From: Clostridia bacterium
GTDB taxonomy: Bacteria > Bacillota > Clostridia > UMGS1883
Assembly: GCA_045545055.1 (NCBI GenBank)
Contig: JAZQAB010000070.1
Location: forward strand, 131 to 64,130
Direction of reading: 5' to 3'
DNA: 64,000 nt
The notes beneath the pieces are model-generated. The model was not told the DNA's origin and searched no databases. It saw only the letters and a program-made list of their open reading frames with translations. The position numbers and the translations under genes are program-made. The stretch's first letter is position 1, and each line of letters starts with the position of its first letter. Positions 11,519 to 48,242 of the stretch are shown piece after piece.

Positions 11519-11572
11519 ATTTCTCCCGATATGAGTGAGAGCGTCACCCGATGAGCGACGCTCCCTTATTAT

Positions 11573-22257: not shown

Positions 22258-25200
22258 ATGTTCAAAAACAACAGAATCATCAAGAAGATCAGCGCAGGGT
22301 TTATGGCAGGACTCTGTGCTTTTTCTATGCTCGGAACGAATCTGAGCAGTACAATTCCTGCCAATGCCGCAAATGTTTCTACCACCGAAAATGCGGCATT
22401 TCCGTCCGCTAACAAGGTTATCGCTCAGGCGGCAACGCTGCTTGGCACACCGTATAACTTTGGTTTCAAGGGCTTTACAGGTGTCTACTATCAGGACAGT
22501 TACAAGGCTCTGGATCTGGATTTTGTCCGTAATCAGGGACTTGACTGTTCGGGACTTGTGTACTACACCCTTACCCACCTTGGCTACAAGACTTCCGGAT
22601 TCAGCTGGAATAATCCTGTTCCTGTTGATACGACGCATTGGCTTACAGTCAATGACAACTGTACCATCAGCTATGGCGGTGTAACATCCAAAATCGACGT
22701 GGAAAAGAAGAAAATCAGCACAGAAGAACGTCCCTATTGGGAATGTGCTGACGGATCGACTATTACTCCCGGTTCTGTTGTCGTAGCAGAAATGCCCGAC
22801 AGCATTGACCACGCATGGATCTATATGGGCGAATTTAATTCCAGAGCTGATGTGGTAACTTATCTTAAGAATATCGGTGTGGATGAATCACTCATTACAA
22901 GTGCAACGGTTGGTAGCGGCAGCGGTGACGGCGGCAGACATTGGCGTATCGAGTCCAATGGCTCTCAGGGTGTTGTGATCAACAACAATACGGACGGCAA
23001 GAAAGCATCTGTCATGAATATGTATGCTTACCGCATTACGCAGGCAGATGTGACCTTTGAGATTACAAAGGTTCTCAAGTCTGATAACAAGGTTGTTATC
23101 AACGGCACAAGCCCGATTGACGGAACAAAGGCGGTTTACGGTGTGTATACGGATAAGGCATGTACTGACAAGGTTGGCGAGATAACAATCGGTACGGACG
23201 GTGTCGGTTCTATCGAGCTTCCCAACCGCCAGTACTACGTCAAGGAAATCTCTGCTCCGACCGGATATAGCATTTCTGAAGAAGTATTCGCACTGAATGC
23301 CAATCAGAATGTGTTTGTAACGGAGGATATTACAAGTGGCAGCATTAAGATTAACAAGACTGCGGAAGATGGTATTCTTGCAGATCACGAATTCAAGCTG
23401 TCATGGGTGGAGGCTGGCAGAAACTGCGAAAAGACTGCTGTTACAGACAGTAATGGTGTTGCAGTGTTCAATGAACTGCCTGTGTATGATCTGATTGGAA
23501 AGAATGTTATTTCTTACACCATCAGCGAAATCAACGTCGAAACCCGTTACGAAACACCGAAGGCACAGAATGTTGTATTGACGGGTGGAAATGTGGATCT
23601 TACGGTTACAGCAAACTTCGTCAACGAGCTGAAAACAGGTTCTATCCGCATCAATAAACAGTCTGAGGACAATCAGAACGGCGACAGAACCTTTACAGTA
23701 ACCGGCAACGGTGAAACCTACACTATCACTACAGGTGCAGACGGTATCGCAATTCTTTCGTATATTCCTGTGTACAACAGCGAAAACGAAAAGATTGTAT
23801 ACACTATCTCCGAAAAGGATGTACCCATCCGCTATGTAGTGCCTGCTAATCAGACAGCAACACTCACAGCGGATGCAACTGTGGATGTGGAATTTGAAAA
23901 TGTCCTCAAGAAGTTCACAGTAGAAGTTGTGAAGAAGGACATCGAAAAAGGCACAGCACAGGGCGATGCAAGCCTTGCAGGTGCGGTTTACGGCATTTAC
24001 AACGGCGATGAACTCATCGACACTTACACCACAGACGAATACGGCAGCTTCACCACACACGAGTTTGAATGTGGCGATAGCTGGACAATCAAGGAACTTA
24101 CTCCCTCCGAGGGTTATCTCCTTGATTCTACTGTATATGAAGTAGGGGCAGCGGAAAAGAAATACACCATCGAAAACAACGCAATCGAAATGACAGTATA
24201 TGAAACACCTGTCAAGGGTAAGATCTCCATCATCAAGCACAGCGATGACGGCACAACAGGCATCGAAACTCCCGAAGTCGGTGCAGAGTTTGAGGTGTAT
24301 CTTAAGTCTGCTGGCAGTTATGCAGAAGCAAAGGAATCTGAAAGAGATTACCTTGTATGCGACGAAAACGGCTTTGCACAGACAAAAATGCTCCCTTATG
24401 GTGTGTATGTCGTACACCAGACAGTCGGCTGGGACAACACCGAATGGGTGGATGACTTCGAGGTCAATGTGTGTGAAAACGAAGAAGATTATTTCTATAT
24501 CATCAACGACGCAGTCCTCACATCCTATGTGAAGATTGTCAAGAAGGACGCTGAAACAGGCAATATCATTCCTGTGGCAGGTATCGGCTTCAAGGTGTGG
24601 AACTGTGATACCAAGAGTTATGTGGTACAGGAGATCAAGTATCCTGCTGTGACTGCACTCGACACATTCTATACTGACGAAACAGGTACACTTATGCTCC
24701 CGAATGAGCTTGTCTACGGCAATTACGAGCTTCACGAGGTACAGTCCGCAAACGGATATGTTCTCGACAGCAAGCCTGTACCGTTCACTATTGATGGTAC
24801 GGTGGATACTGTGACAGTCGAAAAGACAAACAAGCCTCAGAAGGGCAAAATCTCCGTACAGAAGTCCGGTGATGCATTCGCATCTGTAACGGTACTCGGC
24901 CCAGCAATTTGGGTAGATGAGTATGGTGTAACTCACACAGCAGGCTCAACCACCTATACTCCTGTATTCAAGGAAACAGGTCTTGCAGGTGCAGTATTTG
25001 AAATCACGGCTGCAGAGAATATTGTAACTGCTGACGGTACAATCCGTGCAAAGAAGGGTGACGTTGTTGCTACCCTTACAACCGATGATAACGGCTATGC
25101 AGAGAGTGATCTGCTCTATCTCGGCAAGTACGAGGTAAAGGAAATCAAGGCTCCTTACGGTTACGTTCAGAACGCTGTTTCCGAAACAGTTGAACTGACC

Positions 25201-30130: not shown

Positions 30131-31936
30131 ATGGGAGGAAGTGAGAATTTGGATGAAAGACAAATGGTGACAATCGGAATTATGATAGCGTTCCTTGCCT
30201 TGTTTTTGGTTCTTGTGAATGTCCTGGACAACAAGAGCATTAACGGAATCAAGGCAAAACAGGTTGGTGACGGTCAGCACGGCACAGCGAGGTGGGCGAC
30301 GAAACAGGAAATCCGTCGCTCTTTTTCCTCTCTGCCATTCGAGCCTGAACTGTGGCGACAGGGAAAGAATCTGCCAGAGATTGAGGGAACTGTGGTAGCC
30401 TGCAGAGGAACAACAAATACAACAGCACTCATTGACACAGGAGATGTCCACACATTGATGGTCGGTGCAGCGGGCGTGGGCAAGACGGCGTATTTCCTGT
30501 ATCCGAATATTGAATTTGCCTGTGCTTCGGGTATGAGCTTTCTCAGTACGGATACCAAGGGAGATGTGGCGCGAAACTACGGTGAAATCGCAAGCAAGTA
30601 TTACGGCTACCATGTTTCTGTACTTGACCTGCGTAATCCGACCAGATCGGATGAAAATAACATTCTGCACATGGTAAACAAGTATATGGACGAATACCTT
30701 GAGGACAGGACAAACCTTTCAGCAAAGGCAAAGGCCGAAAAGTATGCGAAAATCACAGCGAAAACAATCATCAACATCGGCGGTGGTGACGGAAACTACG
30801 GTCAGAACAGCTTCTTTTACGATGCAGCAGAGGGACTCCTCTCCTCCACCATACTGCTTGTAGCAGAGTTCGGTGACAAGAATGAAAGGCATATAGTTAC
30901 TGTGTTCAAGCTTATTCAGGACTTGATTGCAAAGAAGCCAGCCAAGACCGGTAAGGATAAAACACAGATGTATTTTGCGGAATTAATGGAAATGCTTCCC
31001 TCGGAACACAAAGCAAAATGGCTTGCAGGTGCGGCTCTTAATTCATCTGACCAAGCAATGCTTTCTGTTATGAGTACAGCACTGTCACGATTGAACAGCT
31101 TTCTGGATTCCGAGATGGAACAGATTCTGTGCTTCGGTACAGCCATTGACGCTGAAAAGTTCTGCAGTGAAAAGTGTGCTGTATTCGTAATTTTGCCGGA
31201 GGAAGATCAGTCAAAATACTTCATGGTCAGTCTGCTGATTCAGCAGTTATACCGTGAAATCCTGTCCATTGCCGATGAGAAAGGCGGTACACTGGATAAG
31301 AGGGTTATGTTCTATTGTGATGAGCTGGGAACCTTTCCGAAGATTGACGGACTTGAAGCAATGTTCTCCGCAGGACGTTCCAGAAAAATATCCATTGTAG
31401 CAATTATTCAATCCTTTGCACAGCTGGAACAGACCTACGGCAAACAAGGCATGGAAATCATCACAGACAACACACAGCTGACGGTGTTCGGTGGCTTTGC
31501 TCCAAATTCACAGTCAGCTGAAGTGCTTTCAAAAGCTCTTGGAGAGCAAACAGTCTTGTCTGGCTCTGTATCTCACGGACGAGAACAAAGCAAATCCCTG
31601 CAGATGATCGGCAAACCGCTGATGACGGTGGATGAGCTGAAGTCCATGCCAAAGGGACAGTTTATTGTCATGAAAACAGGAACGCATCCTATGATTTCAA
31701 AGCTCAAGCTGTACTTCAAGTGGGGTATCCAGTTTGAAAAGCCATATCTTCTCCCCGACAAGGGTGCAAGAGCTGTGCGGTATCTGGAACGTGACGAGCT
31801 GATGAGAGAGATTGCTGTGAAATATCCGCAGAAGAAAAAAGTGCTTCCGCCGCCCGAATCGGAGGTAGAAATCGTGAACGAATACGAGCCGGAGCCACAC
31901 AAGGCAAAGCTCGACGTGAAAACGGGAGGGAGATGA
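30131..31936 (+). CDS. VirD4/TraG-family type IV coupling protein
   Basis: N-terminal TM. Walker A MVGAAGVGKT. Walker B-like VMFYCDELG. Typical TraG/VirD4 length and context. Confidence 0.9.
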   Translation: MGGSENLDERQMVTIGIMIAFLALFLVLVNVLDNKSINGIKAKQVGDGQHGTARWATKQEIRRSFSSLPFEPELWRQGKNLPEIEGTVVACRGTTNTTALIDTGDVHTLMVGAAGVGKTAYFLYPNIEFACASGMSFLSTDTKGDVARNYGEIASKYYGYHVSVLDLRNPTRSDENNILHMVNKYMDEYLEDRTNLSAKAKAEKYAKITAKTIINIGGGDGNYGQNSFFYDAAEGLLSSTILLVAEFGDKNERHIVTVFKLIQDLIAKKPAKTGKDKTQMYFAELMEMLPSEHKAKWLAGAALNSSDQAMLSVMSTALSRLNSFLDSEMEQILCFGTAIDAEKFCSEKCAVFVILPEEDQSKYFMVSLLIQQLYREILSIADEKGGTLDKRVMFYCDELGTFPKIDGLEAMFSAGRSRKISIVAIIQSFAQLEQTYGKQGMEIITDNTQLTVFGGFAPNSQSAEVLSKALGEQTVLSGSVSHGREQSKSLQMIGKPLMTVDELKSMPKGQFIVMKTGTHPMISKLKLYFKWGIQFEKPYLLPDKGARAVRYLERDELMREIAVKYPQKKKVLPPPESEVEIVNEYEPEPHKAKLDVKTGGR

Positions 31937-33850: not shown

Positions 33851-34432
33851 ATGAGCAAAAAGAAGAAAAACAGCGTTCAGAAACTCATCGGCTTTGAACG
33901 CTTTACAAAATACGGAGTGCGTACCGACAAGGCAGAGTTTGCATTCTTCGCAGTCGAGCCGACCAACATTTCCGTTATGTCAGCCGCAAGCATCGACACC
34001 AAGGTGCATCACCTTATGATGCTTATGAGCATGGTTCCCGATCTGGAACTCATCGCCCTTGACAGCTGTGAGTGTTTTGACAGCAACAAGGAATATGTCC
34101 GCAGACGCTTGCAGAAAGAAAAGAACGAGGCTGTTCGCAAGCTTCTTGAAGCAGATTACAATTTCCTTGATGAAATCCAGACGGAGATGTCCTCGGCAAG
34201 ACAGTTTCTGTTTGCAGTCAGATTCAGAAAAGAAAAAGAAGAACAGGTATTCAACCTCATTAACAGAATCGACAAGACCATCAGCGACCACGGATTCTCA
34301 GCAAAGCGTATGAGCAAGACCGACATCAAGAGAATGCTGGCACTGTACTTCGGTACGAGCATCACCGGTGACGAAATCCCCGATGTAGAGGGAGAAAACT
34401 ACTTTGACAAGGAGGAATTCGATGAAGAATAA
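33851..34432 (+). CDS. conjugation-associated protein upstream of VirB4
   Basis: ATG at 33851. Its end overlaps the VirB4 start. No motif recognised. Confidence 0.45.
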   Translation: MSKKKKNSVQKLIGFERFTKYGVRTDKAEFAFFAVEPTNISVMSAASIDTKVHHLMMLMSMVPDLELIALDSCECFDSNKEYVRRRLQKEKNEAVRKLLEADYNFLDEIQTEMSSARQFLFAVRFRKEKEEQVFNLINRIDKTISDHGFSAKRMSKTDIKRMLALYFGTSITGDEIPDVEGENYFDKEEFDEE

Positions 34433-36254
34433 GCAGAAAAGAAAAAAGGAATACACCCCCGAACAGCAGGAACGCATCATCACAAAGGAATACTTCGACC
34501 GTATCGCTCCCGGCGTTGTGCGTTTTTACACCGACCACTATATCTGTGGCAATTTTTATAAGTCCTGCTGGGCTGTGACGGAGTACCCTCCCACCACAGA
34601 GGAAACCGCAATCCTTGCACACCTTGCAGACCGCAACGGCGTGACCTTGCGTATCTACAACCGCCTGGTCAACAGCATGGAACAGCGTAAGATTGTTCAG
34701 CAGGCAATGCGAAAGAATCACATGATGAGTACTACTAATGATGTGTCTGAATCCGTTAAGGCACAGGATAACATCAATGACGTGGTAGAGCTTCTCTCAG
34801 AGCTGAGAAGAAACAAGGAGCCTCTCCTGCACACGGCTGTGTTTATTGAGCTGAGAGCGACAACCGAGGATAAGCTCCGTGAGCTGCAGGCAGACATTCA
34901 GATGGAACTTACCAGATCGAAGATTTCTGTTGACAGACTGCTCCTTCGCCAGAAAGAGGGCTTCCTCGCTGTGCTTCCTTGCGGCAATAATGTATTCGCA
35001 AGTCAGTTTGAACGTGTATTGCCTGCAAGCTCTGTTGCGAATCTGTATCCGCTGAACTACTCAGGCAAGACGGATCAGCACGGTTTTTATATCGGCAGAG
35101 ATAAGTACGGCTCGAATGTGCTTGTTGACTTCGATAAGAGAACCGAGGACAAGACCAACTCCAATGTTCTCATCCTCGGCAACAGCGGTCAGGGTAAGTC
35201 GCATCTGTTGAAACTGCTCCTCTGCAATCATCGTGAGGCAGGTAAAAGTGTGTTGGTTCTCGATCCTGAATCGGAATATCAGGAACTGTGTGTAAACCTC
35301 GGCGGCACCTATATCGACATGATGTCGGGCGAATATATGATTAATCCGCTGGAACCTAAGGCTTGGGGTGAAGCGGAAAAGAATATCGACGCTCCCGAAG
35401 TGTTCAGAAAGGTCACAAGGCTGAGTCAGCACATCAGCTATCTGAAAGACTTTTTCAGAGCCTACAAGGACTTCACCGATGCAGAAATCGACACCATCGA
35501 AATCTTGCTCATGAAGCTCTACGGCAGATTCGGAATGGATGACGGCACCAACTTCGATCAGTTCACAGCCGAGGATTACCCGACCATGAGCGACCTCTAC
35601 GAGCTTATCGAAAAAGAATTCATGGCATTTGACAGTGAGAAAAAGCACCTGTACACCGAGGAAATGCTCCAGAATATCTGTCTCGGACTGAACTCTATGT
35701 GCAAGGGTGCGGAGGCAAAATACTTCGACGGGCATACCAATATCCGTGACGCAGAGTTTATCTGTTTCGGTGTGAAAGGTCTTATGGATACTAATAAGCG
35801 GCTGAAAGACACCTTGCTGTTCAACATTCTCAGCTATATGAGCAATCAGCTCCTGGGTAAGGGAAACACGGTGGCGGCCGTCGATGAGCTGTACCTCTTC
35901 CTCACAAACATGACCGCAATTGAATATATCCGCAACGGCATGAAGCGTGTGCGTAAAAAGGAGTCCTCGTTTATTCTGGCAAGTCAGAACATCGAGGACT
36001 TTTTGCTTCCCGAAATCAAGGAATTTACAAAGCCGCTGTTCAGTATCCCGTCCCACCACTTTCTGTTCAATGCAGGTCAGATCAATCCGCAGGAATATAT
36101 GGACGCACTGCAGCTTGAAGAATCCGAGTTCAGTCTTATCCGCTATCCGGAGAGAGGAACCTGTTTGTACCGCTGTGGTAATGAGAGGTATCTGCTTCAG
36201 GTGATCGCACCTGCGTACAAGGCGGCACTGTTTGGTGCGGCAGGAGGTCGATAA
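34422..36254 (+). CDS. VirB4-family conjugative ATPase
   Basis: ATG at 34422 after AAGGAGGAA. Walker A LGNSGQGKSHLLK. Walker B VLVLDPESE. Confidence 0.9.
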   Translation: MKNKQKRKKEYTPEQQERIITKEYFDRIAPGVVRFYTDHYICGNFYKSCWAVTEYPPTTEETAILAHLADRNGVTLRIYNRLVNSMEQRKIVQQAMRKNHMMSTTNDVSESVKAQDNINDVVELLSELRRNKEPLLHTAVFIELRATTEDKLRELQADIQMELTRSKISVDRLLLRQKEGFLAVLPCGNNVFASQFERVLPASSVANLYPLNYSGKTDQHGFYIGRDKYGSNVLVDFDKRTEDKTNSNVLILGNSGQGKSHLLKLLLCNHREAGKSVLVLDPESEYQELCVNLGGTYIDMMSGEYMINPLEPKAWGEAEKNIDAPEVFRKVTRLSQHISYLKDFFRAYKDFTDAEIDTIEILLMKLYGRFGMDDGTNFDQFTAEDYPTMSDLYELIEKEFMAFDSEKKHLYTEEMLQNICLGLNSMCKGAEAKYFDGHTNIRDAEFICFGVKGLMDTNKRLKDTLLFNILSYMSNQLLGKGNTVAAVDELYLFLTNMTAIEYIRNGMKRVRKKESSFILASQNIEDFLLPEIKEFTKPLFSIPSHHFLFNAGQINPQEYMDALQLEESEFSLIRYPERGTCLYRCGNERYLLQVIAPAYKAALFGAAGGR

Positions 36255-38378: not shown

Positions 38379-40787
38379 ATGGCTCTATCTCAAATCATCG
38401 TCACAAGCCGTTATCTCAAAAGCGGTAGCGCAAGGAGTGTGACGAAACGCAAAAACTATACAAAGTATATCGCAACCCGTGAAACCGTGGAAAAGCGTGA
38501 GCAGAATCAACTTGCTCCAAACGCTGCTACCACGAAAACACAAAAGGAAATGCTATCCGAATTGCTCAGTGACTTTCCCGAAGCAAAACGCTATCTTGAA
38601 TATGAGGACTACACTGCAAATCCTACAGTGCAGAATGCAAGCGAACTGATCACAACAATCATTGAACGTCACGCAGATGTCATTGGCAACCGTCAGAATT
38701 TTGTCGGTTACATGGCAAAGCGTCCCGGTGCGGAACAGCGTGGTGCTCACGGATTATTCAATGACAGCGATGAACCAATTGTGCTGAATCAGGTTGCAGA
38801 TGAGGTTGCACATCACAAGGGAAATGTGTGGAGTCATGTTGTTTCGCTTCGCCGTGAGGATGCAATTCGTCTTGGCTATGATAACTCCGACCGCTGGCGT
38901 GAGCTTGTCAAGCGGCAGATTCCTGTCATTGCAGAGCAGTCACGAATTCCGATGAGCAATCTGAAATGGTATGCTGCGTTTCATGATACGACGCATCATC
39001 CGCACATTCATCTGATCGTTTATTCCACCAATCCCAAGCAAGGCTATCTGAGCAGAGAGGGCATTGATAAAATCCGTTCTGCGTTTGCAAATGATATCTT
39101 TCATGATGATCTGCAGAGCATCTATCAGGAACAGACGTTGAACCGTGACGAGCTGAAATCTATATCACAGGAACAGGTGCATCAGATAGTGATGCAGATT
39201 CAGAATAGCACTTTCAATAATCCACAGTTGGAAAAGTTGGTGAAAAAACTGCATGAACAATTGCAGACCGTCAGCGGTAAGAAAGTGTACGGCTATCTTC
39301 CGCAGGATGTAAAGAGTACTGTTGATGAAATCCTTGCAGAGCTTGCAAAGGATAAACAGGTATCACAGCTCTATGAAAAATGGTGTGAGTTGGAACGGCT
39401 GAAGTATAAGATCTATACGCAGAAAGAACCGGAACTCCCACCGCTTGCCGACAACAAGGTATTCAAGCCTGTGAAGAATATGGTTATCCGTGCAGTACTT
39501 GATATGAATATGCCAGAACCAAGCCCATACTCTGTTCCGCAGAATGATGACAGCGACGATACTGCTTTCAGTGACATTGATAATGATGTATTCACTTGGA
39601 ACGACGAGGATGCTGTTGAGGTTGAAGTTGAAAATTCTAATCTGCACATTCAATGGTCGAAGGATTATAAAAAAGCCTGCAAACTGTATTACAAAAAGGA
39701 TGCAACGGATGACAACAAGAAAGAAGCTGTTGCATTGCTTCACTCCGAAGCTGAGAAAGGAAACCTGCTTGCAATCCATGACCTTGGAAAAGTGTATGCT
39801 GATGACAAAGAAAAGTCCGATGCATATTACAAGCAGGCACTTGATGGTTTTCTTGAGCTTGAACCAATGTCGCAAAAACTGCAGCCGTATCTGCAATACC
39901 GTATCGGTAAGATGTACTGCTATGGCTCAGGAACTGAACAGAACTACGCAGAATCATTCGGATGGTTTCTGAAATCCGCATACGCAGGAAATAAGTTTGC
40001 GCAGTTTAGTCTTGCAAATCAGTATTACTATGGAAACGGATTTTATAAGGACAAAGGACAGGCTCTGCATTGGTATATGAAATCCGCAGAGCAAGAATTG
40101 CCATATGCAGCGTATGCCGTTGCACAGATGTATGCAAACGGTGACGCAGTCCTGCAGGATGAAGCTACAGCACAGCAATACTACGCACAAGCATTGGCAG
40201 GCTTTCTGAAACTTGAAGCAAGCGACCGTGCAGATGATAACCTGCTGTATAAGCTCGGCAGAATGTATCGATATGGACTTGGAACAGATGAGGATATTCC
40301 CCAAGCCTTGGAATACTTCTCACGTTCAGCAAAACATGGCAATAAAAATGCCAGACGCATGATTGCTATAGAACAACTATCAGGTGAATACATTCCTCAG
40401 GATGTGAATAAAGCTGTGGAAACGCTCACAGAGCTTGCAGAAAATGGAGATGCGGTATCTGCATATCGGCTCGGCAAACTGTATCTATTTGGTGCAGATG
40501 GTATTGAACGTGATGTGCCACAAGCAATACAATGGCTTACCCAGTCCGCAGAAGGTGGTAACGAGTATGCACAACAGCTTCTTGATAACATGGAGCAGAG
40601 GGAAAACGCTGAATTCGCATCAACTATCTTCGGGTTGTTTGTAAGCTTAAGCCATATGATTGAAGATGACTATAACAGGAGTCATAAGAAACTGCAATCC
40701 AAGGTTGACAGTAAGATTCAGCGTATAATTCGTAAGCATAAGCAGGAGCTTGGTATCCGTGATGAACATGATATGACAATGGCATGA
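38379..40787 (+). CDS. relaxase (MOBP-like His motif) fused to C-terminal Sel1/TPR repeats
   Basis: AAFHDTTHHPHIHLIVYS histidine cluster. N-terminal YIATRE Tyr region. The C-terminal half has repeated Sel1-like units (GKMYCYGSGTEQNYAESFGWFLKSA, LGRMYRYGLGTDEDIPQALEYFSRSA and others). Confidence 0.85.
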   Translation: MALSQIIVTSRYLKSGSARSVTKRKNYTKYIATRETVEKREQNQLAPNAATTKTQKEMLSELLSDFPEAKRYLEYEDYTANPTVQNASELITTIIERHADVIGNRQNFVGYMAKRPGAEQRGAHGLFNDSDEPIVLNQVADEVAHHKGNVWSHVVSLRREDAIRLGYDNSDRWRELVKRQIPVIAEQSRIPMSNLKWYAAFHDTTHHPHIHLIVYSTNPKQGYLSREGIDKIRSAFANDIFHDDLQSIYQEQTLNRDELKSISQEQVHQIVMQIQNSTFNNPQLEKLVKKLHEQLQTVSGKKVYGYLPQDVKSTVDEILAELAKDKQVSQLYEKWCELERLKYKIYTQKEPELPPLADNKVFKPVKNMVIRAVLDMNMPEPSPYSVPQNDDSDDTAFSDIDNDVFTWNDEDAVEVEVENSNLHIQWSKDYKKACKLYYKKDATDDNKKEAVALLHSEAEKGNLLAIHDLGKVYADDKEKSDAYYKQALDGFLELEPMSQKLQPYLQYRIGKMYCYGSGTEQNYAESFGWFLKSAYAGNKFAQFSLANQYYYGNGFYKDKGQALHWYMKSAEQELPYAAYAVAQMYANGDAVLQDEATAQQYYAQALAGFLKLEASDRADDNLLYKLGRMYRYGLGTDEDIPQALEYFSRSAKHGNKNARRMIAIEQLSGEYIPQDVNKAVETLTELAENGDAVSAYRLGKLYLFGADGIERDVPQAIQWLTQSAEGGNEYAQQLLDNMEQRENAEFASTIFGLFVSLSHMIEDDYNRSHKKLQSKVDSKIQRIIRKHKQELGIRDEHDMTMA

Positions 40788-40827
40788 TTTTTTACAGATT
40801 TTTTTCGTAGGCTCTAAGCTCATAGAA

Positions 40828-40855
40828 AACGCTCTGCACATCAATGCAGAGCGTT
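40828..40855. terminator. bidirectional terminator between convergent genes
   Basis: AACGCTCTGCA / TGCAGAGCGTT perfect 11-bp stem between the relaxase stop (40787) and the minus-strand stop (40863). Confidence 0.7.
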
Positions 40856-40862
40856 ACTGTTA

Positions 40863-42197
40863 TTAACCATAGTTGTATTTTTGAGCCTCTTCGCTTGTAT
40901 CTTCAAGATATGCAACACAATTCAGCTCGGTTCCGTTTGCGAATTCTTCCAGACCAAAGCCAGAAATACCGTAAAAGTCTCTTTTCTTACCATAGAAAAA
41001 TCTATAGTTCTCTGGCAGATTGGTAATTCTGATAGCATATGTAATATTACCGTTATAGCTGTCAGGGCTGTCAAAGGAATACTGAAGATTTTCTATGTAC
41101 AATTCCTCCGTCTCTGATGTGTTCCATGCTGCAACAACATCGCCAGTCTGAAGATTAAACAGTTCACACTCAAGATTGTGTATAGACACATTGCTGATAA
41201 TATCCAATACTTTTAATCTCAATGAGTATGTACCTTCCAATGGTATACTATTTACAGGTTCTTGTTCCTTAGATAACAGTATATCAATGTTTCTATCTCC
41301 TTCAAAATAGCCGGAGATATTGTATTCAATGAGATTTTGACCACTAAAACTATACTCAGATGGAAGTGTATCGACAACCACTATGTATCTGTATTCCGTT
41401 TCTTCCTTGATAAAACTTGCATAATATGAGGTGTGATCAGATGAATTCCATTCTGCAACTACTATACCATCACCAACATCTGCATATGTTACATCGTCTA
41501 TCCATTCAATCTTTTGTTGTATCAATCTGGCATTAATTGAATTTACAGCTTCGAAACTATTATCATCAAGAAAACTGATATGAAATCCATAGGAATTCGG
41601 ATCAGGTATGATTCCGGGATCTGTATTGCTTGTAGCAGTAGTAGTAGTTGGACGATCTGGAGGTGGATCTACAGTTGATGAAATCTTAGGTGGGGTAGTT
41701 TGTTTGGGTGCAGTTGTGGTAACCGGAGATACCGGAGTTACTACTGTTTCTGTAACAGACGGCAATGTTTCAGGCGATTCCGTCGTTACATTATTCTCAC
41801 CTGTTGTTACAGGCTGAGTGACAGGATTATTGGTTGCAGATTGATTTGTTGCTTCAGTTGTAACAGTAATTATATTATTGGTATCTGCATCTGTTGTGGT
41901 AACTTTAGGAACAGATGATGTATCATTCACATCTGCATCAGGAACATCTGTAGAGTCGATAATAACATTGTCGGGGGGCTGTACCAGCAGATCGCTGTTT
42001 AATACGTTTTTTAATTTATCATTATTCCATACCCCAAGGCAAACTATTATAGCAGCACACAACCCTGAAACGGTTAAGGAAACACGTTTTATGGTGGCTA
42101 TGCGTTTCATTTTTCTCTGTTCCTTTATTTCAACTTCTCTGGCAACTATCTCAGCCATTTTTTTATAGTCCATCATACGTATATCCCTCCTTTTCAA
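40863..42197 (-). CDS. single-pass membrane protein, putative anti-sigma factor whose ectodomain copies the adjacent adhesin
   Basis: The start overlaps the sigma stop by 35 nt. One TM (VSGLCAAIIVCLGVW) and a Thr/Pro linker. The ectodomain matches the first two domain types of ORF 43005..45167. The last 100 aa or so are about 90 percent identical to the adhesin repeats. Confidence 0.6.
   Translation of the reverse strand: MKRRDIRMMDYKKMAEIVAREVEIKEQRKMKRIATIKRVSLTVSGLCAAIIVCLGVWNNDKLKNVLNSDLLVQPPDNVIIDSTDVPDADVNDTSSVPKVTTTDADTNNIITVTTEATNQSATNNPVTQPVTTGENNVTTESPETLPSVTETVVTPVSPVTTTAPKQTTPPKISSTVDPPPDRPTTTTATSNTDPGIIPDPNSYGFHISFLDDNSFEAVNSINARLIQQKIEWIDDVTYADVGDGIVVAEWNSSDHTSYYASFIKEETEYRYIVVVDTLPSEYSFSGQNLIEYNISGYFEGDRNIDILLSKEQEPVNSIPLEGTYSLRLKVLDIISNVSIHNLECELFNLQTGDVVAAWNTSETEELYIENLQYSFDSPDSYNGNITYAIRITNLPENYRFFYGKKRDFYGISGFGLEEFANGTELNCVAYLEDTSEEAQKYNYG
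40866..41174. repeat. inverted copy of the adhesin repeat core (vs about 43521-43821, 44103-44403, 44682-44982)
   Basis: The reverse complement aligns by eye at roughly 85-90 percent nucleotide identity with the three direct copies. Confidence 0.75.
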
Positions 42198-42717
42198 TTT
42201 CCTTTTTTAGCGCAGCCTTGGCACGGTACAAAAGATCAATTATTTGCTTGTTCGATTTGCCCATAATTTCAGCAGTCTCGCTGGTATTGAAGTCTTCAAA
42301 GAATATAAGATACAAAACTTGGCTATATTCAGGTTTCAGTTTTTTGATAGTTTGCCGCAGTCTGATTCGCTCTTTGTTTTTTATGTATTCACGTTCCAGG
42401 TTTTCTCCATCAGAGATATCAAGTGCGTCATCGATAGAAATTTCGGTTACTCGCTTGTTTTTCCTTATATAGTCAAGGGCAGTATATCTTCCAATAGAAA
42501 AAAGCCATGTTTTAAAAGAACACTTTCCTTTGAAATTTGGTTTCTCATAAAACAACTTAACAAAGGTATCTATCGTAAGTTCTTCTGCATGATGAATATC
42601 TCCGACTATATTGTTTAGGTAAAAAACAAGTCCGTCCTTGTAATCTCGGATTATTTCCTCAATCGCATCTTTATCTCCTGAGAGAAAACGGCTATAACAA
42701 TTGGCACCGTTATCCAT
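42163..42717 (-). CDS. ECF-like sigma-70 family sigma factor (paralog of 13882..14436)
   Basis: 184 aa and about half identical to the other copy. FKTWLFSIGRYTALDYIRK and FEDFNTSETAEIMGKSNKQIIDLLYRAKAAL. Confidence 0.85.
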   Translation of the reverse strand: MDNGANCYSRFLSGDKDAIEEIIRDYKDGLVFYLNNIVGDIHHAEELTIDTFVKLFYEKPNFKGKCSFKTWLFSIGRYTALDYIRKNKRVTEISIDDALDISDGENLEREYIKNKERIRLRQTIKKLKPEYSQVLYLIFFEDFNTSETAEIMGKSNKQIIDLLYRAKAALKKEIEKEGYTYDGL

Positions 42718-42772
42718 TTTTCTCTCCTTTCAAATTCGATGAGTAAAAACTCAAAAATCATCTCTCATATAT

Positions 42773-42804
42773 TTAGTCGAAAAAATAAGTGTCAGAATCG
42801 CAGT
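42773..42804 (-). promoter_or_regulatory. candidate ECF-type promoter for the sigma/anti-sigma operon
   Basis: The minus strand reads ACTGCGATTCT-N14-CGACTAA. Confidence 0.45.
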
Positions 42805-42887
42805 CATTTGAGAAGAAAAAACGATTTTTTCATCTACAACTATATTATAGCACATTTTCGGATTTTCTTCAAAATTTTTTTTAAAAA

Positions 42888-42919
42888 ACTGCGATTCTCG
42901 ATGATAAAAATACGACTAA
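42888..42919 (+). promoter_or_regulatory. candidate ECF-type promoter for the adhesin/sortase operon
   Basis: The plus strand reads ACTGCGATTCT-N14-CGACTAA. Boxes and spacing are identical to the divergent copy 84 bp away. Confidence 0.45.
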
Positions 42920-43004
42920 TGAGTGAAGGGTTAAAGCGAGCTCCCCCTTGTAGTTCCGGAATCATCTCTCAAAACTATACCTGAATGAAAAAGGAGGAAT
43001 ATTC

Positions 43005-45167
43005 ATGAAAAAATCCAGAATACTGAGTTTATTGCTCTCCGCAGCAATCTCACTAACACCATTATGCAGTATTTCTGCATCAGCCGAGGAATCTTCTTAT
43101 TCCTTTAACATCTGTTTTATTGCGGAAGAATCAGAGGAATACGTTGAAAATGTAAATGCCAAACTGATTCAGCAAGCGATTGAATGGACAGATGATGAAC
43201 ATTTTGTATATGTCGGAGATGAAATTATTGTTTCCGAGTGGAACACTAATAACGCAAACCCATTCATTACAGAGTCCTTCACTGACAACTGGCACGATTA
43301 TGCATATCGTGTAGTAGTGGACGAATTGCCTGACGGCTACATTTTCAATTCAAGCAAACGTGTCGAAAGTGGAATTTCCGGTTATCTTGATGGAGAAGTC
43401 AAAGTGTCAATCAAACTCGCTGAAGGCGAAATTACCGAAAACACTACTCCTCTGGAAGGTACATATTCATTAAAGCTTAACGTCATGGATATTGTCAGAA
43501 ATGAAAAGATAGCAGGTTTAGACTGCGAACTTTTCAACATTCAGACCGGTGATGTCGTTGCTGCATGGAACACATCTGAAACAGAGGGAATGTATATTGA
43601 AAATCTTCAGTATTCATTTGACAGAGCAGACAGCTACAACGGCAACATTACATATGCCATCAGAATTACAAATCTGCCTGAAAATTATCGTTTCTTCTAT
43701 GGTAAAACCAGAGATCAATACGGAGTATCCGGATTTAGTTTAGAGGAATTCGTCAACGGAACAAATCTGTCGTGTACAGTTTATCTTGAAGATACAAGCG
43801 AAGATGCTCCGAAATACACTTATGTGTCTACTCCTCAGGCTAATATCACAACAGTTACAACCACTACAACAATAGCTGAACCGTCACCACTAACTACCAC
43901 AATTACAGATGAAAACGGAAATTTCATTGACGAGAACGGCAATATTGTTACAACAAGTGAAACATCTAAAACAGAGCCGCAGACAATAATAACAACAACT
44001 ACTTCTGGTCCGGTTGACCTGAACGACATCCCTCTGGAAGGAACATATTCACTGAAACTCAGTGTTATGGATATCGTCAGAAATGAGAAGATCGCAGGAT
44101 TGAACTGTGAACTATTCAATCTCCAGAGTGGTGATGTTGTTGCTGCATGGAACACATCAGAAACTGAAGAAATGTATATTGAAAATCTTCAGTATTCCTT
44201 TGACAGACCTGACAGCTATAACGGCAACATTACATATGCCATCAGAATTACAAATCTGCCAGAGAATTATAGATTTTTCTATGGAAAGAGCAGAGACTTT
44301 TACGGAATTTCCGGCTTTGGTCTGGAAGAATTTGCAAACGGCACTGAACTGAAATGTGTTGCTTATCTTGAAGATACGAGCGAAGAAGCTCCAAAGTACA
44401 CTTACATATCAACTCCGCAGGGTAACACTACAACAGTTACAACTACTACAACAATAGCTGAATCTGCATCATCAACTACCACAGTTACAGATGAACACGG
44501 AAATTACATCGACGAGAATGGTAATATTATTACAACAAGCGATACTTCTAAGACAGAAACTCAGACAACGACAACTACCACATCTGCTTCTTTTGACTTG
44601 AATGACATCCCTCTGGAAGGAACATATTCACTGAAACTCAGTGTTATGGATATCGTCAGAAATGAGAAGATTGCAGGCTTGAACTGCGAATTATTCAACA
44701 TCCAGACTGGTGATGTCGTTGCTGCATGGAACACATCAGAAACTGAAGAAATGTATATTGAAAATCTTCAGTATTCCTTTGACAGACCTGACAGCTATAA
44801 CGGTAACATTACATATGCCATCAGAATTACCAATCTTCCTGAGAATTACAGATTTTTCTACGGTAAAAGCAGAGAGTTTTACGAAATTTCCGGCTTTGCT
44901 CTGGAAGAATTCGCAAATGGCACTGAGCTGAACTGTGTTGCTTATCTTGAAGATACAAGCGATGATGCTCCGAAGTACACTTATGTTACTACTCCACAGG
45001 ATAGCACAACAACAACTACTACAACTACAGCTCAGACTGAGAATAACGAAGAAACACTTCCTCAGACAGGTTACTCTTCCATCTATAAAGTTGTTGCAGG
45101 GCTTGCATCTCTTATGACATTAAGTGGAGCTGCAATTCTTGTTAAGACAAGAAAAAAAGATGAATAA
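43005..45167 (+). CDS. LPQTG-anchored surface protein with three 193-aa repeats
   Basis: Signal peptide. Domain order A-B-linker-B-linker-B. C-terminal LPQTG, hydrophobic segment and KTRKKDE tail. Confidence 0.85.
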   Translation: MKKSRILSLLLSAAISLTPLCSISASAEESSYSFNICFIAEESEEYVENVNAKLIQQAIEWTDDEHFVYVGDEIIVSEWNTNNANPFITESFTDNWHDYAYRVVVDELPDGYIFNSSKRVESGISGYLDGEVKVSIKLAEGEITENTTPLEGTYSLKLNVMDIVRNEKIAGLDCELFNIQTGDVVAAWNTSETEGMYIENLQYSFDRADSYNGNITYAIRITNLPENYRFFYGKTRDQYGVSGFSLEEFVNGTNLSCTVYLEDTSEDAPKYTYVSTPQANITTVTTTTTIAEPSPLTTTITDENGNFIDENGNIVTTSETSKTEPQTIITTTTSGPVDLNDIPLEGTYSLKLSVMDIVRNEKIAGLNCELFNLQSGDVVAAWNTSETEEMYIENLQYSFDRPDSYNGNITYAIRITNLPENYRFFYGKSRDFYGISGFGLEEFANGTELKCVAYLEDTSEEAPKYTYISTPQGNTTTVTTTTTIAESASSTTTVTDEHGNYIDENGNIITTSDTSKTETQTTTTTTSASFDLNDIPLEGTYSLKLSVMDIVRNEKIAGLNCELFNIQTGDVVAAWNTSETEEMYIENLQYSFDRPDSYNGNITYAIRITNLPENYRFFYGKSREFYEISGFALEEFANGTELNCVAYLEDTSDDAPKYTYVTTPQDSTTTTTTTTAQTENNEETLPQTGYSSIYKVVAGLASLMTLSGAAILVKTRKKDE
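43449..45000 (+). repeat. tandem coding repeat, period 579-582 bp, about 2.7 copies
   Basis: CCTCTGGAAGG(A/T)ACATATTCA recurs at 43449, 44031 and 44610. Copies 2 and 3 are nearly identical. Confidence 0.85.
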
Positions 45168-45178
45168 TTGATAAAATG

Positions 45179-45210
45179 AGAGCGCTACTCTCGATAGTAG
45201 CGCTCTTTTC
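45179..45210 (+). terminator. hairpin/attenuator between the adhesin and sortase genes
   Basis: AGAGCGCTACT / AGTAGCGCTCT stem then TTTT. It lies just upstream of the sortase ATG. Confidence 0.55.
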
Positions 45211-45223
45211 GCTATTGAAGGAT

Positions 45224-45736
45224 ATGAAAAGAAGAACAGTACGAATTATCGGCGTTATTATGATTACTTGCGGTGCTTTGATATTGTCTGTTTTCGCATA
45301 TAAACGAATCAGTCGAGAACTATATTTGCAAAAGCTTTTGGAAGAAAATGTGATATTTGAAATCCCAAGTTTAAATATCAGAGTTCCCGTCCTTGAGGGA
45401 ACTGATTCGAAAGCACTTCAAGTATCAGCCGGACATTTTGAGGGAACGGGTTCACCCGGTCATGATAATTACTGCATTGCAGGACATAACAGCACAATAT
45501 ATGCTGAAATTTTCAATGATCTTGATAACATCCAGATTGGTGATGAAATGCATCTGATTGATACAGATGATAAAAGAACCAACTATATCTATATTGTTAC
45601 GGAGTATACTATCGTTGATCCCCACAATGTTAGTGTTCTTAACGATTATGGCGATGACAGACTGACTGTTATATCGTGTACCGACGATGGAGAGTACCGA
45701 CAGGTAGTTGTCGGAATCCTCAAAGAAAATAAATGA
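45224..45736 (+). CDS. small sortase (intact paralog of pseudogene 11007..11518)
   Basis: ATG at 45224. N-terminal TM. CIAGHN His motif. LTVISCTD Cys motif. YRQVVVG Arg. Confidence 0.85.
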   Translation: MKRRTVRIIGVIMITCGALILSVFAYKRISRELYLQKLLEENVIFEIPSLNIRVPVLEGTDSKALQVSAGHFEGTGSPGHDNYCIAGHNSTIYAEIFNDLDNIQIGDEMHLIDTDDKRTNYIYIVTEYTIVDPHNVSVLNDYGDDRLTVISCTDDGEYRQVVVGILKENK

Positions 45737-45756
45737 TATATCGAAAGGAGCTTATT

Positions 45757-47070
45757 ATGAAATTTACAATGATGTTTAACAAATTTTTAGCAGGAGTTAT
45801 TTCCTTAACAAGTGTAATTGGTTTCGGCAGCTTTCCACATAACGTAGCCGAAGATGCTGTGTTTGAGGTTCAAGCAGCTGAAAGCAATAAAGAAATATTT
45901 GATGCTGAATGTTTTTTTGTTTATACAGGAACATATGGCGAGAAGCAATTACCGATCTTTGAGTACTATTACCCATCAAACGACATTTCAGGAACAAATT
46001 ATAAACATCGTAAAAGTTACTTTAAAGGGGATGTTCCGAATGATCTGGAATATGGAGATATTTTTGTAACTGCCGGCGATGTTGTTACAACCTTAGATGA
46101 AAACACAAGAAATACTTACGAACTTGATCAAAGCACTGAATTACAAATCGTTGGCAATTGCTCTGAACTAATGGAAACTCAATCTTTGCAGGTTGTTGAC
46201 AAAACCTATAGTGGAATGACGATGCCACCTGTTTATGCTGTTTTCACATTTCATCTGAGTGATGAGAACGAAAACAAGTATTATTATTCATTTGATAGCT
46301 TTGGAAGTACTCTTGGAATGAACATATCAGGAGCAACCGAGGGAGATACACTGTCTTTTGCTGTATATAATGATAGCGTGATTATCCCTGTAACGCCCAA
46401 GCAGAACGCAGATACAGCAACAGGCGATGTGAATGATGATGGCGAATTTACTATATCGGATGTGGTATTGCTTCAGAAGTGGTTGCTAGCTGTTCCTGAG
46501 ACTCATCTTGCCAATTGGAGAGCTGCAAATTTTTGTGTCGATGAAAGACTCGATGCTTTCGATTTGTGTCTGATGAAAAGACAACTAATAGAAAAACTCA
46601 ACGAAAATGTCAAGTCATCTTTCGAATTGCAAAGTGTTTACAATACACAAACCAATGTCGACAGTCATAATGAATGGCAAGGATATATTGCACATTCTGA
46701 AAACGAATTAAATGAAATAATACAAGAAAACGAAGGATTAAACGGACAGGAGATTTTATTAGAAGGCATTGACAAGAATTGCTTTGAAGATAAATCCATA
46801 ATTATTATTTACAGCCCGTTCTGTCCAAGTAATCAATACTCAATAATTGATGATATTCTTGTTGCAAATGAAACCCTTAACGTTTCTACCACAACAAAAA
46901 AGCCTGATATGCCACGACTTGATATGTGCTACAGAAGGTATCTTTATATCGTAGATAAGAATGAAGTTGCTGATGCAAGTAATATCACTTTTAATGATAC
47001 ATCTTCACGCTATGGAGATATTGATGAAAAAGATGTAGTAAATTGGTTCAACGCATGGTGTGAAGCTTAA
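45757..47070 (+). CDS. secreted protein with an internal dockerin module
   Basis: ATG at 45757 after GAAAGGAG, then a signal peptide. GDVNDDGEFTISDVVLLQKWLL ... NFCVDERLDAFDLCLMKRQL is the same dockerin subtype as in the CotH protein. The roughly 170-aa C-terminal domain is unrecognised. Confidence 0.7.
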   Translation: MKFTMMFNKFLAGVISLTSVIGFGSFPHNVAEDAVFEVQAAESNKEIFDAECFFVYTGTYGEKQLPIFEYYYPSNDISGTNYKHRKSYFKGDVPNDLEYGDIFVTAGDVVTTLDENTRNTYELDQSTELQIVGNCSELMETQSLQVVDKTYSGMTMPPVYAVFTFHLSDENENKYYYSFDSFGSTLGMNISGATEGDTLSFAVYNDSVIIPVTPKQNADTATGDVNDDGEFTISDVVLLQKWLLAVPETHLANWRAANFCVDERLDAFDLCLMKRQLIEKLNENVKSSFELQSVYNTQTNVDSHNEWQGYIAHSENELNEIIQENEGLNGQEILLEGIDKNCFEDKSIIIIYSPFCPSNQYSIIDDILVANETLNVSTTTKKPDMPRLDMCYRRYLYIVDKNEVADASNITFNDTSSRYGDIDEKDVVNWFNAWCEA

Positions 47071-47199
47071 TATAATTAAATACACTCTCTATCTTGAATA
47101 CATGATATACCTTTGCGGCCTCCAGATTTTCTTGGAGGTCGTTTTTTTAATGTTTTTAAAATTTTTTGATTGTTGTCGGTCAACACCGCCAACAAACTA

Positions 47200-47228
47200 T
47201 TTACATTTCAGGAAAAATATGTTATAAT
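47200..47228 (+). promoter_or_regulatory. promoter of the WYL regulator
   Basis: TTTACA 47200-47205, N17, TATAAT 47223-47228. Preceded by the palindromic TTGTTGTCGGTCAACACCGCCAACAA. Confidence 0.45.
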
Positions 47229-47261
47229 ATACTAAGCATATCTTGTTATCGGAGGTGTCAC

Positions 47262-48242
47262 ATGGAAAGAGATAAAAACAGGAAACTCAAGCTGCTGAAA
47301 CTACTGGAAATCCTGCAGAGAGAAACAGATGAACAGCATCCTATGAAAACAACTGACATCTGTCGTCGGATGGAAGATATGGACATCTCCTGTGACCGAA
47401 GAATACTTGCTTCGGAAATTCAGACCTTGCGTGAGCAGGGATATGAGATACAGCAATGTCAGGTTGGCAGAGCAAAAGGCTACTTTATTGCGGATCGTGC
47501 GTTTAAAGTGCCGGAACTTCGCATGCTACTGGATGCTGTAGAGGCCTCGCAGCTTCTCACAGAAAAAAAGACGCAGGAGCTGAAAGATAAAATTGTCAGT
47601 CTGAGCAGTGACAAACAGGCTGAAATATTGAAAAGTACTGTTGTGCGCTTCAATTCTGCAAAATCCACAAATGAACGGATCTACCATACTATCGGGACAT
47701 TGGAAGAAGCAATACGCAAAAAGAAAAAAGTCACGATTCGGTATTTTCATCTGAATGAGCAGCGTGAAAAGGTGTATCGTTCTGAAAACGGAATTCATAC
47801 AGTAGAACCGATTGCTCTTGTTTATAACAACGACAAGTACTATCTTACCTGCTACAATCCTGTTGCTGACAAGAATTACAATTACAGACTTGACCGTATT
47901 GAGTGGGTAGAAATTCTCAAAGAAAAGATAAGCAAAAACGCAGTTATCCGCAGTCGGTCAGTTGCAAAATACACCGCACAGGTTTTCAAAATGTATGGCG
48001 GTGAAACTGTAAATGTAACATTGGCATTCGATGCACACATGATTGATTACATATATGAAAAATTCGGTATGGAAACTAAGATTTTCCCTCTTGACAATGA
48101 GGAATTCACAACAAATGTCGATGTGCAGCTTAGTCCTACATTTTGGGGATGGTTGTTTCAATTCACTGGAAAGATGAGAATTACTGCACCAGAAAGTGCA
48201 TATGAAGAATACGAAGAAATGCTAAAAAGGGCATTAGAATAA
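47262..48242 (+). CDS. HTH-WYL domain transcriptional regulator (BrxR/CapW-like position upstream of a defence locus)
   Basis: ATG at 47262 after GGAGGTG. N-terminal wHTH (KLLEILQRETDEQHPMKTTDICRRM). Central WYL-like segment (VTIRYFHLNEQREKVYRSENGIHTVEPIALVYNNDKYYLTCY). Confidence 0.72.
   Translation: MERDKNRKLKLLKLLEILQRETDEQHPMKTTDICRRMEDMDISCDRRILASEIQTLREQGYEIQQCQVGRAKGYFIADRAFKVPELRMLLDAVEASQLLTEKKTQELKDKIVSLSSDKQAEILKSTVVRFNSAKSTNERIYHTIGTLEEAIRKKKKVTIRYFHLNEQREKVYRSENGIHTVEPIALVYNNDKYYLTCYNPVADKNYNYRLDRIEWVEILKEKISKNAVIRSRSVAKYTAQVFKMYGGETVNVTLAFDAHMIDYIYEKFGMETKIFPLDNEEFTTNVDVQLSPTFWGWLFQFTGKMRITAPESAYEEYEEMLKRALE

Follow-up and report, generated by a model that had tools for sequence, protein, structure and literature searches.

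In a 64,000-nucleotide (nt) stretch of DNA from a Clostridia bacterium (the window), we analysed a cassette in which genes for an extracytoplasmic function (ECF)-type sigma factor and a membrane protein stand divergent to a gene for a surface protein built from the same two types of domain as the membrane protein. The region is situated on a conjugative element. Coordinates are positions within the window, and related loci and proteins are denoted L001–L027 and P00xx, respectively. Genes were annotated by Pfam and NCBIfam/TIGR profile searches and BLASTP, together with a repeat search and an AlphaFold model compared with the PDB by Foldseek. The minus-strand unit consists of the sigma gene (42163-42717, 184 residues) and the gene for an anti-sigma-like membrane protein, here called the sensor (40863-42176, 437 residues; 40863-42197 in the open reading frame as first listed). 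The plus-strand unit consists of genes for an LPQTG surface protein, here called the adhesin (43005-45167, 720 residues), for a sortase in the same direction (45176-45736; Pfam Sortase, 84 bits) and, last in the operon, for a dockerin protein (45733-47070; Pfam Dockerin_1). The sigma, membrane-protein and LPQTG reading frames of a first-pass annotation of the window were all found where it had placed them. Close relatives are annotated as Ruminococcus sp. or as Oscillospiraceae metagenome-assembled genomes, and R. flavefaciens FD-1 (ACOK01000102, L005) has a 47%-identical copy.

The sigma protein contains regions 2 and 4 only (Sigma70_r2, PF04542, 44 bits; Sigma70_r4_2, PF08281, 34 bits) and scored 90.8 bits against the TIGR02937 sigma70-ECF profile, for which the cut-off is 42.9. 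On these profile matches it was assigned to the ECF (group IV) sigma-70 factors. The start of the sensor was placed at ATG 42176, giving 437 residues, because all 50+ orthologues share the N-terminus MMDYK and a GGAGG sequence lies 9 nt 5′ of this codon. The sensor and sigma genes overlap by 14 nt at the sigma stop codon, and an overlap of the two is kept in every locus examined. The sensor begins with a 31-residue cytoplasmic helix and a transmembrane segment; a linker of 141 residues, in which Thr, Pro and Val are abundant, leads on to domains A and B. The transmembrane segment (residues 32-50; 42027-42083, minus strand; value 2.2 in a Kyte-Doolittle window of 19 residues) is the only one of its kind and is preceded by the basic stretch KMKRIATIKR, giving a single-pass topology with the N-terminus inside. 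The linker is hypervariable apart from a PPPDR motif (41652-41666, minus strand); P171, D174 and T177 are invariant or nearly so among 12 diverged orthologues. The form PPPDR(T/P)T was present in the linkers of all sensor orthologues, including P0057, which has a different N-terminus, and was not present in the adhesin linkers. It may be a processing (cleavage) or recognition site.

Pfam and NCBIfam searches with the whole sensor, and with its N-terminus, domain A and domain B separately, gave no match even at E<=10, and RsgI_N (PF12791) was likewise not matched. Paralogous sigma genes in the window and in L019 are followed by genes for proteins of the same plan, with a short N-terminus, a transmembrane segment and a linker, joined to unrelated ectodomains. 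P0057 (L026/L027) carries the same linker-A-B ectodomain, 43% identical, on an unrelated N-terminus behind an unrelated ECF sigma factor, and is evidence of domain shuffling among anti-sigma-like proteins. Its setting is a chromosomal housekeeping context (decarboxylase, RlmL, penicillin-binding protein), with no A-B partner nearby. The conserved gene overlap, the common plan of the paralogues and the P0057 graft together point to a modularity like that of sensor anti-sigma factors, and we consider it quite probable that the membrane protein acts as one. The first-pass annotation had proposed it as an anti-sigma candidate; architecture and gene context support that assignment, although the protein has no recognisable anti-sigma domain.

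The sensor ectodomain and the adhesin are homologous. BLASTP aligned residues 199-443 of the first-listed sensor reading frame with adhesin residues 28-273 at 59% identity over 246 residues (E=8e-99). In the sensor, domain A comprises residues 192-307 (41256-41603, minus strand) and domain B residues 308-436; the adhesin consists of a signal peptide, domain A, B1 (43437-43823), B2 (44019-44405), B3 (44598-44984) and an LPQTG sequence (residues 685-689; 45057-45071) followed by a hydrophobic stretch and KTRKKDE, all on the plus strand. Together with a match to Gram_pos_anchor (PF00746, 27.5 bits, cut-off 20), this ending marks the adhesin as a predicted LPXTG sortase-anchored surface protein. 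Identity between sensor and adhesin was uneven. Domain A is 40–46% identical. BLASTP gave 85% identity between the sensor B domain and B2, and 82% for B3. Within the sensor B domain, the first 27 codons (the head; 41175-41255, minus strand) reach only 56–59% protein and 59–65% nucleotide identity to the adhesin copies, with six diagnostic positions that split sensor from adhesin sequences. The last 102 codons (the tail; 40869-41174, minus strand), aligned in exact register, are 92, 88 and 82% identical to B2, B3 and B1 at the protein level and 87, 84 and 78% at the nucleotide level.

At the DNA level the tail forms the left arm of three inverted repeats. With the sensor-side arm at 40868-41171, the repeat search returned plus-strand arms in B2 (I1, 44106-44400, 295 nt, 89% complementary, longest exact run 26 nt), B3 (I2, 44685-44985, 301 nt, 85%) and B1 (I3, 43521-43824, 304 nt, 78%). 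Within the adhesin these are three direct copies of 300 nt at spacings of 582 and 579 nt, and the repeat arms share a reading frame. The observations of the first-pass annotation were thus borne out on each of these points: the same two domain types occur in the same order, A-B facing A-B-B-B, the last 100 or so sensor residues are about 90% identical to adhesin repeats 2 and 3, and an inverted repeat of about 300 bp faces three direct copies. Low-complexity similarity was excluded as an explanation, since the matching parts are folded beta domains and not the Thr-rich linkers.

Structure prediction on A-B, as the first-pass annotation had proposed, gave a fold resembling CnaB domains and shaft pilins. 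The AlphaFold model consists of two all-beta domains (predicted local distance difference test, pLDDT, 87 for the model and about 90 for domain A), and its top Foldseek matches in the PDB were the shaft pilins SpaA (5f44; E=2.9e-8, probability 1.0), GBS52, SpaD and BcpA and the Cna B repeat (1d2o). The template modelling score of the whole model was only about 0.3, as its two domains are oriented differently. A sequence search of the PDB with the ectodomain returned noise only, and among 1.84 billion proteins only 48 cluster representatives matched the B domain at E<=1e-3. As modelled, therefore, A and B form an uncatalogued family of CnaB-type modules. They gave no Pfam CnaB or SpaA match and showed no evident pilin motif and no invariant lysine in the first strands, where a K/R position is variable. 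Two cysteines are invariant in every sensor and adhesin B domain (C337 and C420 of the sensor; LDCELF and L.C.AYLE), and this pair may be joined by a disulfide where CnaB domains typically have an isopeptide bond. The terms 'adhesin' and 'ligand' are assumptions; the predicted structure is that of a string of stalk-type domains joined by Thr-rich linkers.

The region between the sigma and adhesin genes was aligned for 10 loci and contains two conserved blocks, each the reverse complement of the other. They correspond to an ECF-type promoter on the sigma/sensor side (42773-42802, minus strand; TGCGATTCT-N14-CGACTAA, exact match) and a second one, with an exact match to the same motif, on the adhesin side (42890-42919, plus strand). 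The motif TGCGATTnT-N14-CGACTAA has exactly two exact matches in the window, where 0.2 would be expected even with two mismatches, and both copies were present in each of the 14 sequences compared, from the window and 13 related loci. Substitutions within a locus are matched between its two copies: GTTACTAA occurs twice in FD-1 (L005) and in L008, TTCGATT occurs twice in L017, and L018 has TGAGAT and TGAGAC. A related motif lies upstream of the paralogous sigma gene at 13882-14436, whose product is 54% identical. The promoter that the first-pass annotation had suggested at 42888-42919 coincides with the plus-strand copy of this bipartite motif, and the regulatory link that it drew between sigma factor and adhesin is strongly supported by a shared motif that is conserved and changes in parallel.

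A sigma-70-type promoter was found on the sigma side only (42844-42872, minus strand; TTGAAG-17-TGnTATAAT, 10 of 12 consensus positions plus an extended -10), with an ATTATA block that is invariant in the 10-locus alignment. The simplest reading of these sequences is that basal transcription of the sigma and sensor genes would be driven by the housekeeping sigma factor, that the sigma operon would be positively autoregulated, and that the adhesin operon would depend on the ECF sigma factor alone. As read from the comparisons, we hold this wiring to be very probable. A 9-mer, CATCTCTCA, was also conserved in nearly all loci at about 42757-42765 and 42965-42973 (plus strand). It lies just past the sigma-side -10 box, where the sigma mRNA would read UGAGAGAUG, and recurs some 45 nt into the adhesin 5′ untranslated region; the sigma and adhesin transcripts would be complementary at these sites. 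RNAalifold applied to the adhesin 5′ untranslated region gave no consensus structure.

The cassette recurs in at least seven Ruminococcus/Oscillospiraceae lineages, including R. flavefaciens FD-1, and was found in L001, L002, L004, L005, L017, L018, L019, L021 and L024. Its flanks are of different types (a MobP3 relaxase, a serine recombinase, or a tyrosine integrase with Mob_Pre), which indicates that it moves as a unit. In these cassettes the partner of the sensor always contained A-B, either anchored by LPXTG with one to three B copies or fused to a dockerin. The arrangement is A-B-B-B-LPXTG in the window, L001, L002, L004 and L024, A-B-B-LPXTG in L017 and L021, A-B-LPXTG in L019, A-B fused to a dockerin protein in L018 (P0060), and A-B plus dockerin in the FD-1 type (P0061/P0065). 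The sortase gene is kept beside the LPXTG-type partner in L001, L002, L004, L017, L021 and L024. In L018, A-B is fused to a homologue of the window's dockerin protein (45733-47070) and the sortase is missing; anchoring therefore alternates between the cell wall and the cellulosome. In L003 all that is left of the partner is a signal peptide and a fragment of domain A, ended by a stop (642-836, minus strand); the sigma/sensor pair and both promoter motifs are intact. L021 lacks a relaxase gene and has about 70 nt (9300-9443) homologous to the 3′ end of the window relaxase gene (40716-40787), which suggests that its cassette descends from an element like that of the window.

The window contains a second, paralogous cassette at 8776-14436 on the minus strand. 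It encodes the sigma factor already mentioned (13882-14436, 54% identical to the first), a sensor-like protein of 385 residues (12744-13901), an LPQTG protein with two internal repeats (11573-12589), a truncated sortase (11096-11518) and a CotH-dockerin protein (8776-10851). In L019/L020 three sigma/sensor-like pairs stand in tandem, each beside a gene for a dockerin or LPXTG protein, and are followed by a fourth sigma-like gene with a 487-residue membrane protein. This array in L019/L020 suggests an expanded family of such cassettes in Ruminococcus.

The uneven identity between sensor and adhesin, which the first-pass annotation had attributed to recent gene conversion, has more than one cause. 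In all sensor orthologues, even those of 46–53% overall identity, no part is better conserved than the B tail. In unrelated sensor-adhesin pairs, third-position identity is at the background level of about 46% in head and tail alike; the general contrast between head and tail therefore reflects selection at the protein level, as does the excess of protein over nucleotide identity in the tail. To separate pairing within a locus from this background, we used a permutation test on B-tail identity with seven independent clades and 5040 sensor-adhesin pairings. The true own-locus pairing gave the highest tail identity of all 5040 (P=0.0002), both for all sites (76.7% own-locus against 71.7% cross-locus) and for third positions (56.6% against 46.5%). 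No own-locus excess was found in the B head (P about 0.2) or in domain A (P=0.5), which rules out an artefact of codon usage.

Discrete characters told the same story. One codon is missing in SYNGN in only two of 103 B domains, and these are the sensor and the adhesin of L019. The sensor of L024 has an adhesin-type B head. In the clade of the window, the C-terminal half of adhesin B2 and B3 (YGISGFGLEEFANGTELNCVAYLE) is of sensor type, and B1 and the adhesins of other clades carry YGVSGF.LEEF.NGT..SCTVYLE at that half. Exchange has therefore proceeded in both directions. Neighbour-joining trees of short B segments contained mixed sensor and adhesin copies, and the bootstrap support of their deep nodes was low; for this reason we relied on the permutation test, the indel and haplotype painting. 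Thus the B tail evolves in concert between a sensor and the adhesin of its own locus by gene conversion.

The sharp step in identity within the window sensor gene has a different immediate origin. Comparison in bins of 100 nt placed an allelic recombination breakpoint at 41170-41190. Against L001 and L007 the window shows 0–4 differences per 100 nt in the bins from 41187 to 43450, 11–20 per 100 nt left of the breakpoint within the sensor gene, and 35–40 per 100 nt in bin 40799-40886, which comprises the last 24 nt of the gene and the intergenic 40799-40862. Against L021, the region left of the breakpoint shows 0–1 differences per 100 nt within the gene and 7 in the last bin. Two tail haplotypes were distinguished, an ancestral sensor-like type (YCIQTKEVVAS...) and an adhesin-like type (FNLQTGDVVAA...), besides several to many mosaic alleles. 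The window tail is of the adhesin-like type, which matches adhesin B2/B3 at 12 of 16 haplotype-distinguishing protein positions, the other type matching at 2. Recent conversion from the resident adhesin was rejected: the tail is 87% identical to B2 in nucleotides (third positions 68% over the last 102 codons and 69.5% over codons 28-122) but 99.6% identical to the sensor allele of L021. The adhesin-like tail is thus the product of an older conversion that was later imported by allelic homologous recombination, with the crossover at the edge of the conserved tract; the identity step near 41,180 exists because recombination brought in a tail that was already adhesin-like. Of the original proposal, gene conversion stands, as repeated and bidirectional exchange; its recency does not, and the uneven identity is largely a matter of uneven purifying selection.

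We favour, with moderate confidence, the reading that the cassette contains a product-mimicking sensor within an ECF sigma/anti-sigma system, carried as cargo of a conjugative element in a Ruminococcus-like bacterium. The sigma factor would be made at a basal level from the sigma-70-type promoter and would transcribe, from the two divergent promoters with the same motif, its own operon and the adhesin-sortase-dockerin operon. The translationally coupled membrane protein would hold the sigma factor through its 31-residue cytoplasmic helix, and its transmembrane segment and a Thr/Pro-rich linker about 140 residues long would bring A-B across the cell wall, level with the anchored A-B-B-B. Since sensor and product have the same module, whatever engages the product would also engage the sensor. 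Engagement by an external ligand, by the product itself or by a protease would release the sigma factor and place the surface protein under feed-forward or feedback control. Strong purifying selection and repeated, bidirectional gene conversion across the inverted orientation keep the B tails alike, and allelic recombination spreads converted tails. By analogy with RsgI, the signal is most likely an external ligand shared by sensor and product; further candidates are the product itself and a surface insult, for instance a protease, to which sensor and product are both susceptible. Sensing of the same ligand, or homotypic sensing, gains in plausibility because the partner keeps A-B through changes of anchor.

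Several observations weigh against the product-mimicking sensor. Class I anti-sigma factors have an N-terminal ASD/ZAS domain of about 80–90 residues, often with an HxxxCxxC motif; in the sensor no such N-terminal domain and no His/Cys motif were found, and its cytoplasmic part of about 31 residues is shorter than classical anti-sigma domains. At the promoter, TGCGATT occupies the -35 position where a textbook ECF promoter has GAAC. The usual role of CnaB-type domains is that of a stalk and not of a ligand-binding module, and in L003 and L026 the sensor has been kept with no intact partner beside it. A mirror design as a general rule was rejected, because neither the cassette at 8776-14436 nor the two further pairs of L019 show similarity between ectodomain and neighbouring surface protein. 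Conversion is confined to the most conserved stretch and could be a neutral by-product of similarity and proximity. Taken further, this last point leads to the alternative that the membrane protein is a co-transcribed paralogue of the surface protein with no regulatory meaning, its identity peaks reflecting neutral conversion where background conservation is highest and recombination easiest; the very short tail and the missing anti-sigma domain would also fit. We think this very unlikely, given that the overlap with the sigma gene is conserved at every locus, that paralogous sigma genes are followed by proteins of the same plan with unrelated ectodomains, that the A-B ectodomain has been grafted behind a different ECF sigma factor (P0057), and that tail protein identity exceeds nucleotide identity, indicating selection. 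A further possibility is that the sensor measures the adhesin itself through homotypic B-B contacts, surface density of the product setting sigma activity in a negative feedback and gene conversion keeping the two contact faces matched; it concerns the signal and would fit the wiring described above. Concerted evolution that is bidirectional and confined to one domain segment would be in keeping with this, as would a linker long enough to set A-B of the sensor level with the wall-anchored modules, and a partner that always retains A-B. This possibility is nevertheless doubtful: the two-domain model (predicted template modelling score 0.51) is uninformative on B-B contacts, the sensor survives where its neighbouring partner is degraded or absent, and we know of no CnaB domains that act as homophilic binders. 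In a broader version, the sensor recognises the product or is attacked or engaged like it, so that the cell would read its own surface protein by means of a copy; conversion would lock the two specificities together as the surface protein diversifies, and occasional in-frame inversion would swap anchors to give a secreted A-B protein and a wall-tethered sensor. Sensor and effector would then be a self-matching pair that concerted evolution maintains, which also seems unlikely to us.

The last alternative concerns the inverted repeats, which the first-pass annotation had suggested could mediate inversion of the sigma/anti-sigma segment. Inversion of 41.17-43.52 kb would fuse the 5′ part of the adhesin gene to the sensor tail, and the reverse, in frame. 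In the metagenomic contig L025 (sample ERZ1767614; protein P0059) the sigma gene stands divergent to a signal peptide, adhesin domain A, an adhesin B head, a sensor-type tail and a stop, and the sequence continues into the flank that is normally downstream of the sensor. Identity to L004 is 98% on either side of the crossover, which falls within 8 nt. The parental repeats of L004 share no run longer than 20 nt, so a chimera of k-mer (de Bruijn) assembly is unlikely; the contig has a coverage of 2.4x and may still be an artefact, and we give roughly even odds that it is a real rearrangement. On the strongest interpretation, the repeats would be a recombination switch between the standard arrangement and one with an anchorless secreted A-B and a sensor ending in B-B-LPXTG, making display and signalling phase-variable. 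The common reading frame of the arms and the exactly predicted chimeric structure of L025 are consistent with such a switch. L025 is, however, a single contig, all other loci are in the standard orientation, the reciprocal product was not seen among 85 homologues, the cassette has no invertase gene, and the arms in the window are only 78–89% identical with exact matches of at most 26 nt. A switch of this kind is thus quite unlikely; the suggested inversion as such is possible, with one contig of the predicted structure.

The nearest parallel for the product-mimicking sensor is the RsgI/SigI system of Clostridium (Acetivibrio) thermocellum and its relatives, in which a membrane anti-sigma factor has a modular extracellular sensor domain of the same kind as modules on the regulated extracellular proteins, and several paralogous pairs per genome have different sensors and autoregulated operons (PMC12484212, PMC11557425, PMC10328401; Kahel-Raifer 2010 and Nataf 2010, as cited in these papers). 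The comparison with RsgI drawn in the first-pass annotation holds as a likeness of logic, in that the sensor module matches modules of the regulated protein (A-B against A-B-B-B, 59–92%), and does not extend to family membership. The sigma factor here is of ECF type, with regions 2 and 4, and not sigma-I, and the sensor lacks both RsgI_N and a conserved periplasmic domain for autoproteolysis. Its sensor modules are CnaB/pilin-like, whereas those of RsgI are carbohydrate-binding modules, PA14 or glycoside hydrolase domains. Unlike in RsgI/SigI, sensor and target are adjacent and divergent, share a promoter motif and exchange sequence by conversion.

Among ECF systems, SigW/RsiW, SigV/RsiV, SigM/YhdL and SigX/RsiX each combine a small sigma factor with an overlapping downstream gene for a single-pass membrane partner, and classical Firmicute ECF operons are autoregulated from a bipartite promoter whose -10 contains CG and have a sigma-A promoter in addition. 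The present cassette resembles them in the size and regions of its sigma factor, the overlapping single-pass partner, the autoregulation-type motif and the extra housekeeping promoter. It differs in the cytoplasmic part of about 31 residues without ASD/ZAS, in the -35 TGCGATT and in an ectodomain paralogous to the regulated product. With SpaA, GBS52, SpaD, BcpA and the Cna B repeats the adhesin shares tandem CnaB-like beta-sandwiches, an LPXTG signal and an adjacent sortase gene; unlike shaft pilins, it has Thr-rich linkers between domains, two invariant cysteines in each B domain and no evident conserved isopeptide lysine. To our knowledge, pilus loci are under RofA-like or AraC-type regulators and not ECF sigma factors. 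Gene conversion of surface-protein genes is familiar from Neisseria pilE/pilS and from the homogenisation of repeats in streptococcal surface proteins. As in those genes, short tracts are exchanged non-reciprocally between nearby homologous coding segments, giving mosaic alleles, but here the exchange links a structural gene and a presumed sensor gene, in inverted orientation and in both directions. In shufflons and phase-variable hsdS genes, in-frame inverted repeats swap C-terminal modules; the repeats described here are likewise coding and in frame, but they are diverged, lack a dedicated recombinase and have yielded one candidate contig.

That modular anti-sigma sensors borrow binding modules from the proteins they regulate is already known from RsgI. 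Searches of open-access text returned no account of an ECF anti-sigma factor whose CnaB-type ectodomain is a paralogue of its target, nor any of a sensor evolving in concert with the gene it regulates, and in the literature searched no RsgI-type regulation surfaced for surface and cellulosome-attached proteins of rumen or gut Ruminococcus. We regard as new the mirror-sensor design in an ordinary ECF system that would control a sortase- or dockerin-displayed CnaB-type protein, the compact mobile cassette whose wiring can be read from a duplicated, co-varying promoter, and the statistical and discrete-character evidence for concerted evolution of sensor and target by DNA exchange. If the product-mimicking sensor is confirmed, the cassette would be a simple model of how a sensor follows the diversification of a surface protein. 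The system is tractable, as R. flavefaciens FD-1, cultured and genome-sequenced, has the module, and it offers a lead on the regulation of surface and cellulosome-attached proteins in rumen and gut Ruminococcus.

Of the remaining features, the model of the dockerin protein was of low confidence (pLDDT 67) with weak OB-fold-like matches, from which no function could be derived, and all its homologues are unannotated Ruminococcus dockerin proteins. Its N-terminal domain recurs in more than 1000 unannotated Ruminococcus proteins. An Rfam search of 40500-47500 gave nothing above noise. A terminator-like hairpin lies past the dockerin gene (47115-47142), and a perfect 11-bp hairpin between the convergent relaxase and sensor genes (40828-40855) is a likely bidirectional terminator. 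Neighbouring genes of the conjugative element encode a SpaA-repeat surface protein of 1461 residues (22258-26643), then a Toprim protein, a VirD4/TraG-type coupling protein (30131-31936), a VirB4-like ATPase (34404-36254) and a MobP3 relaxase with Sel1 repeats (38379-40787); the cassette is followed by a WYL regulator and a type I restriction-modification system.

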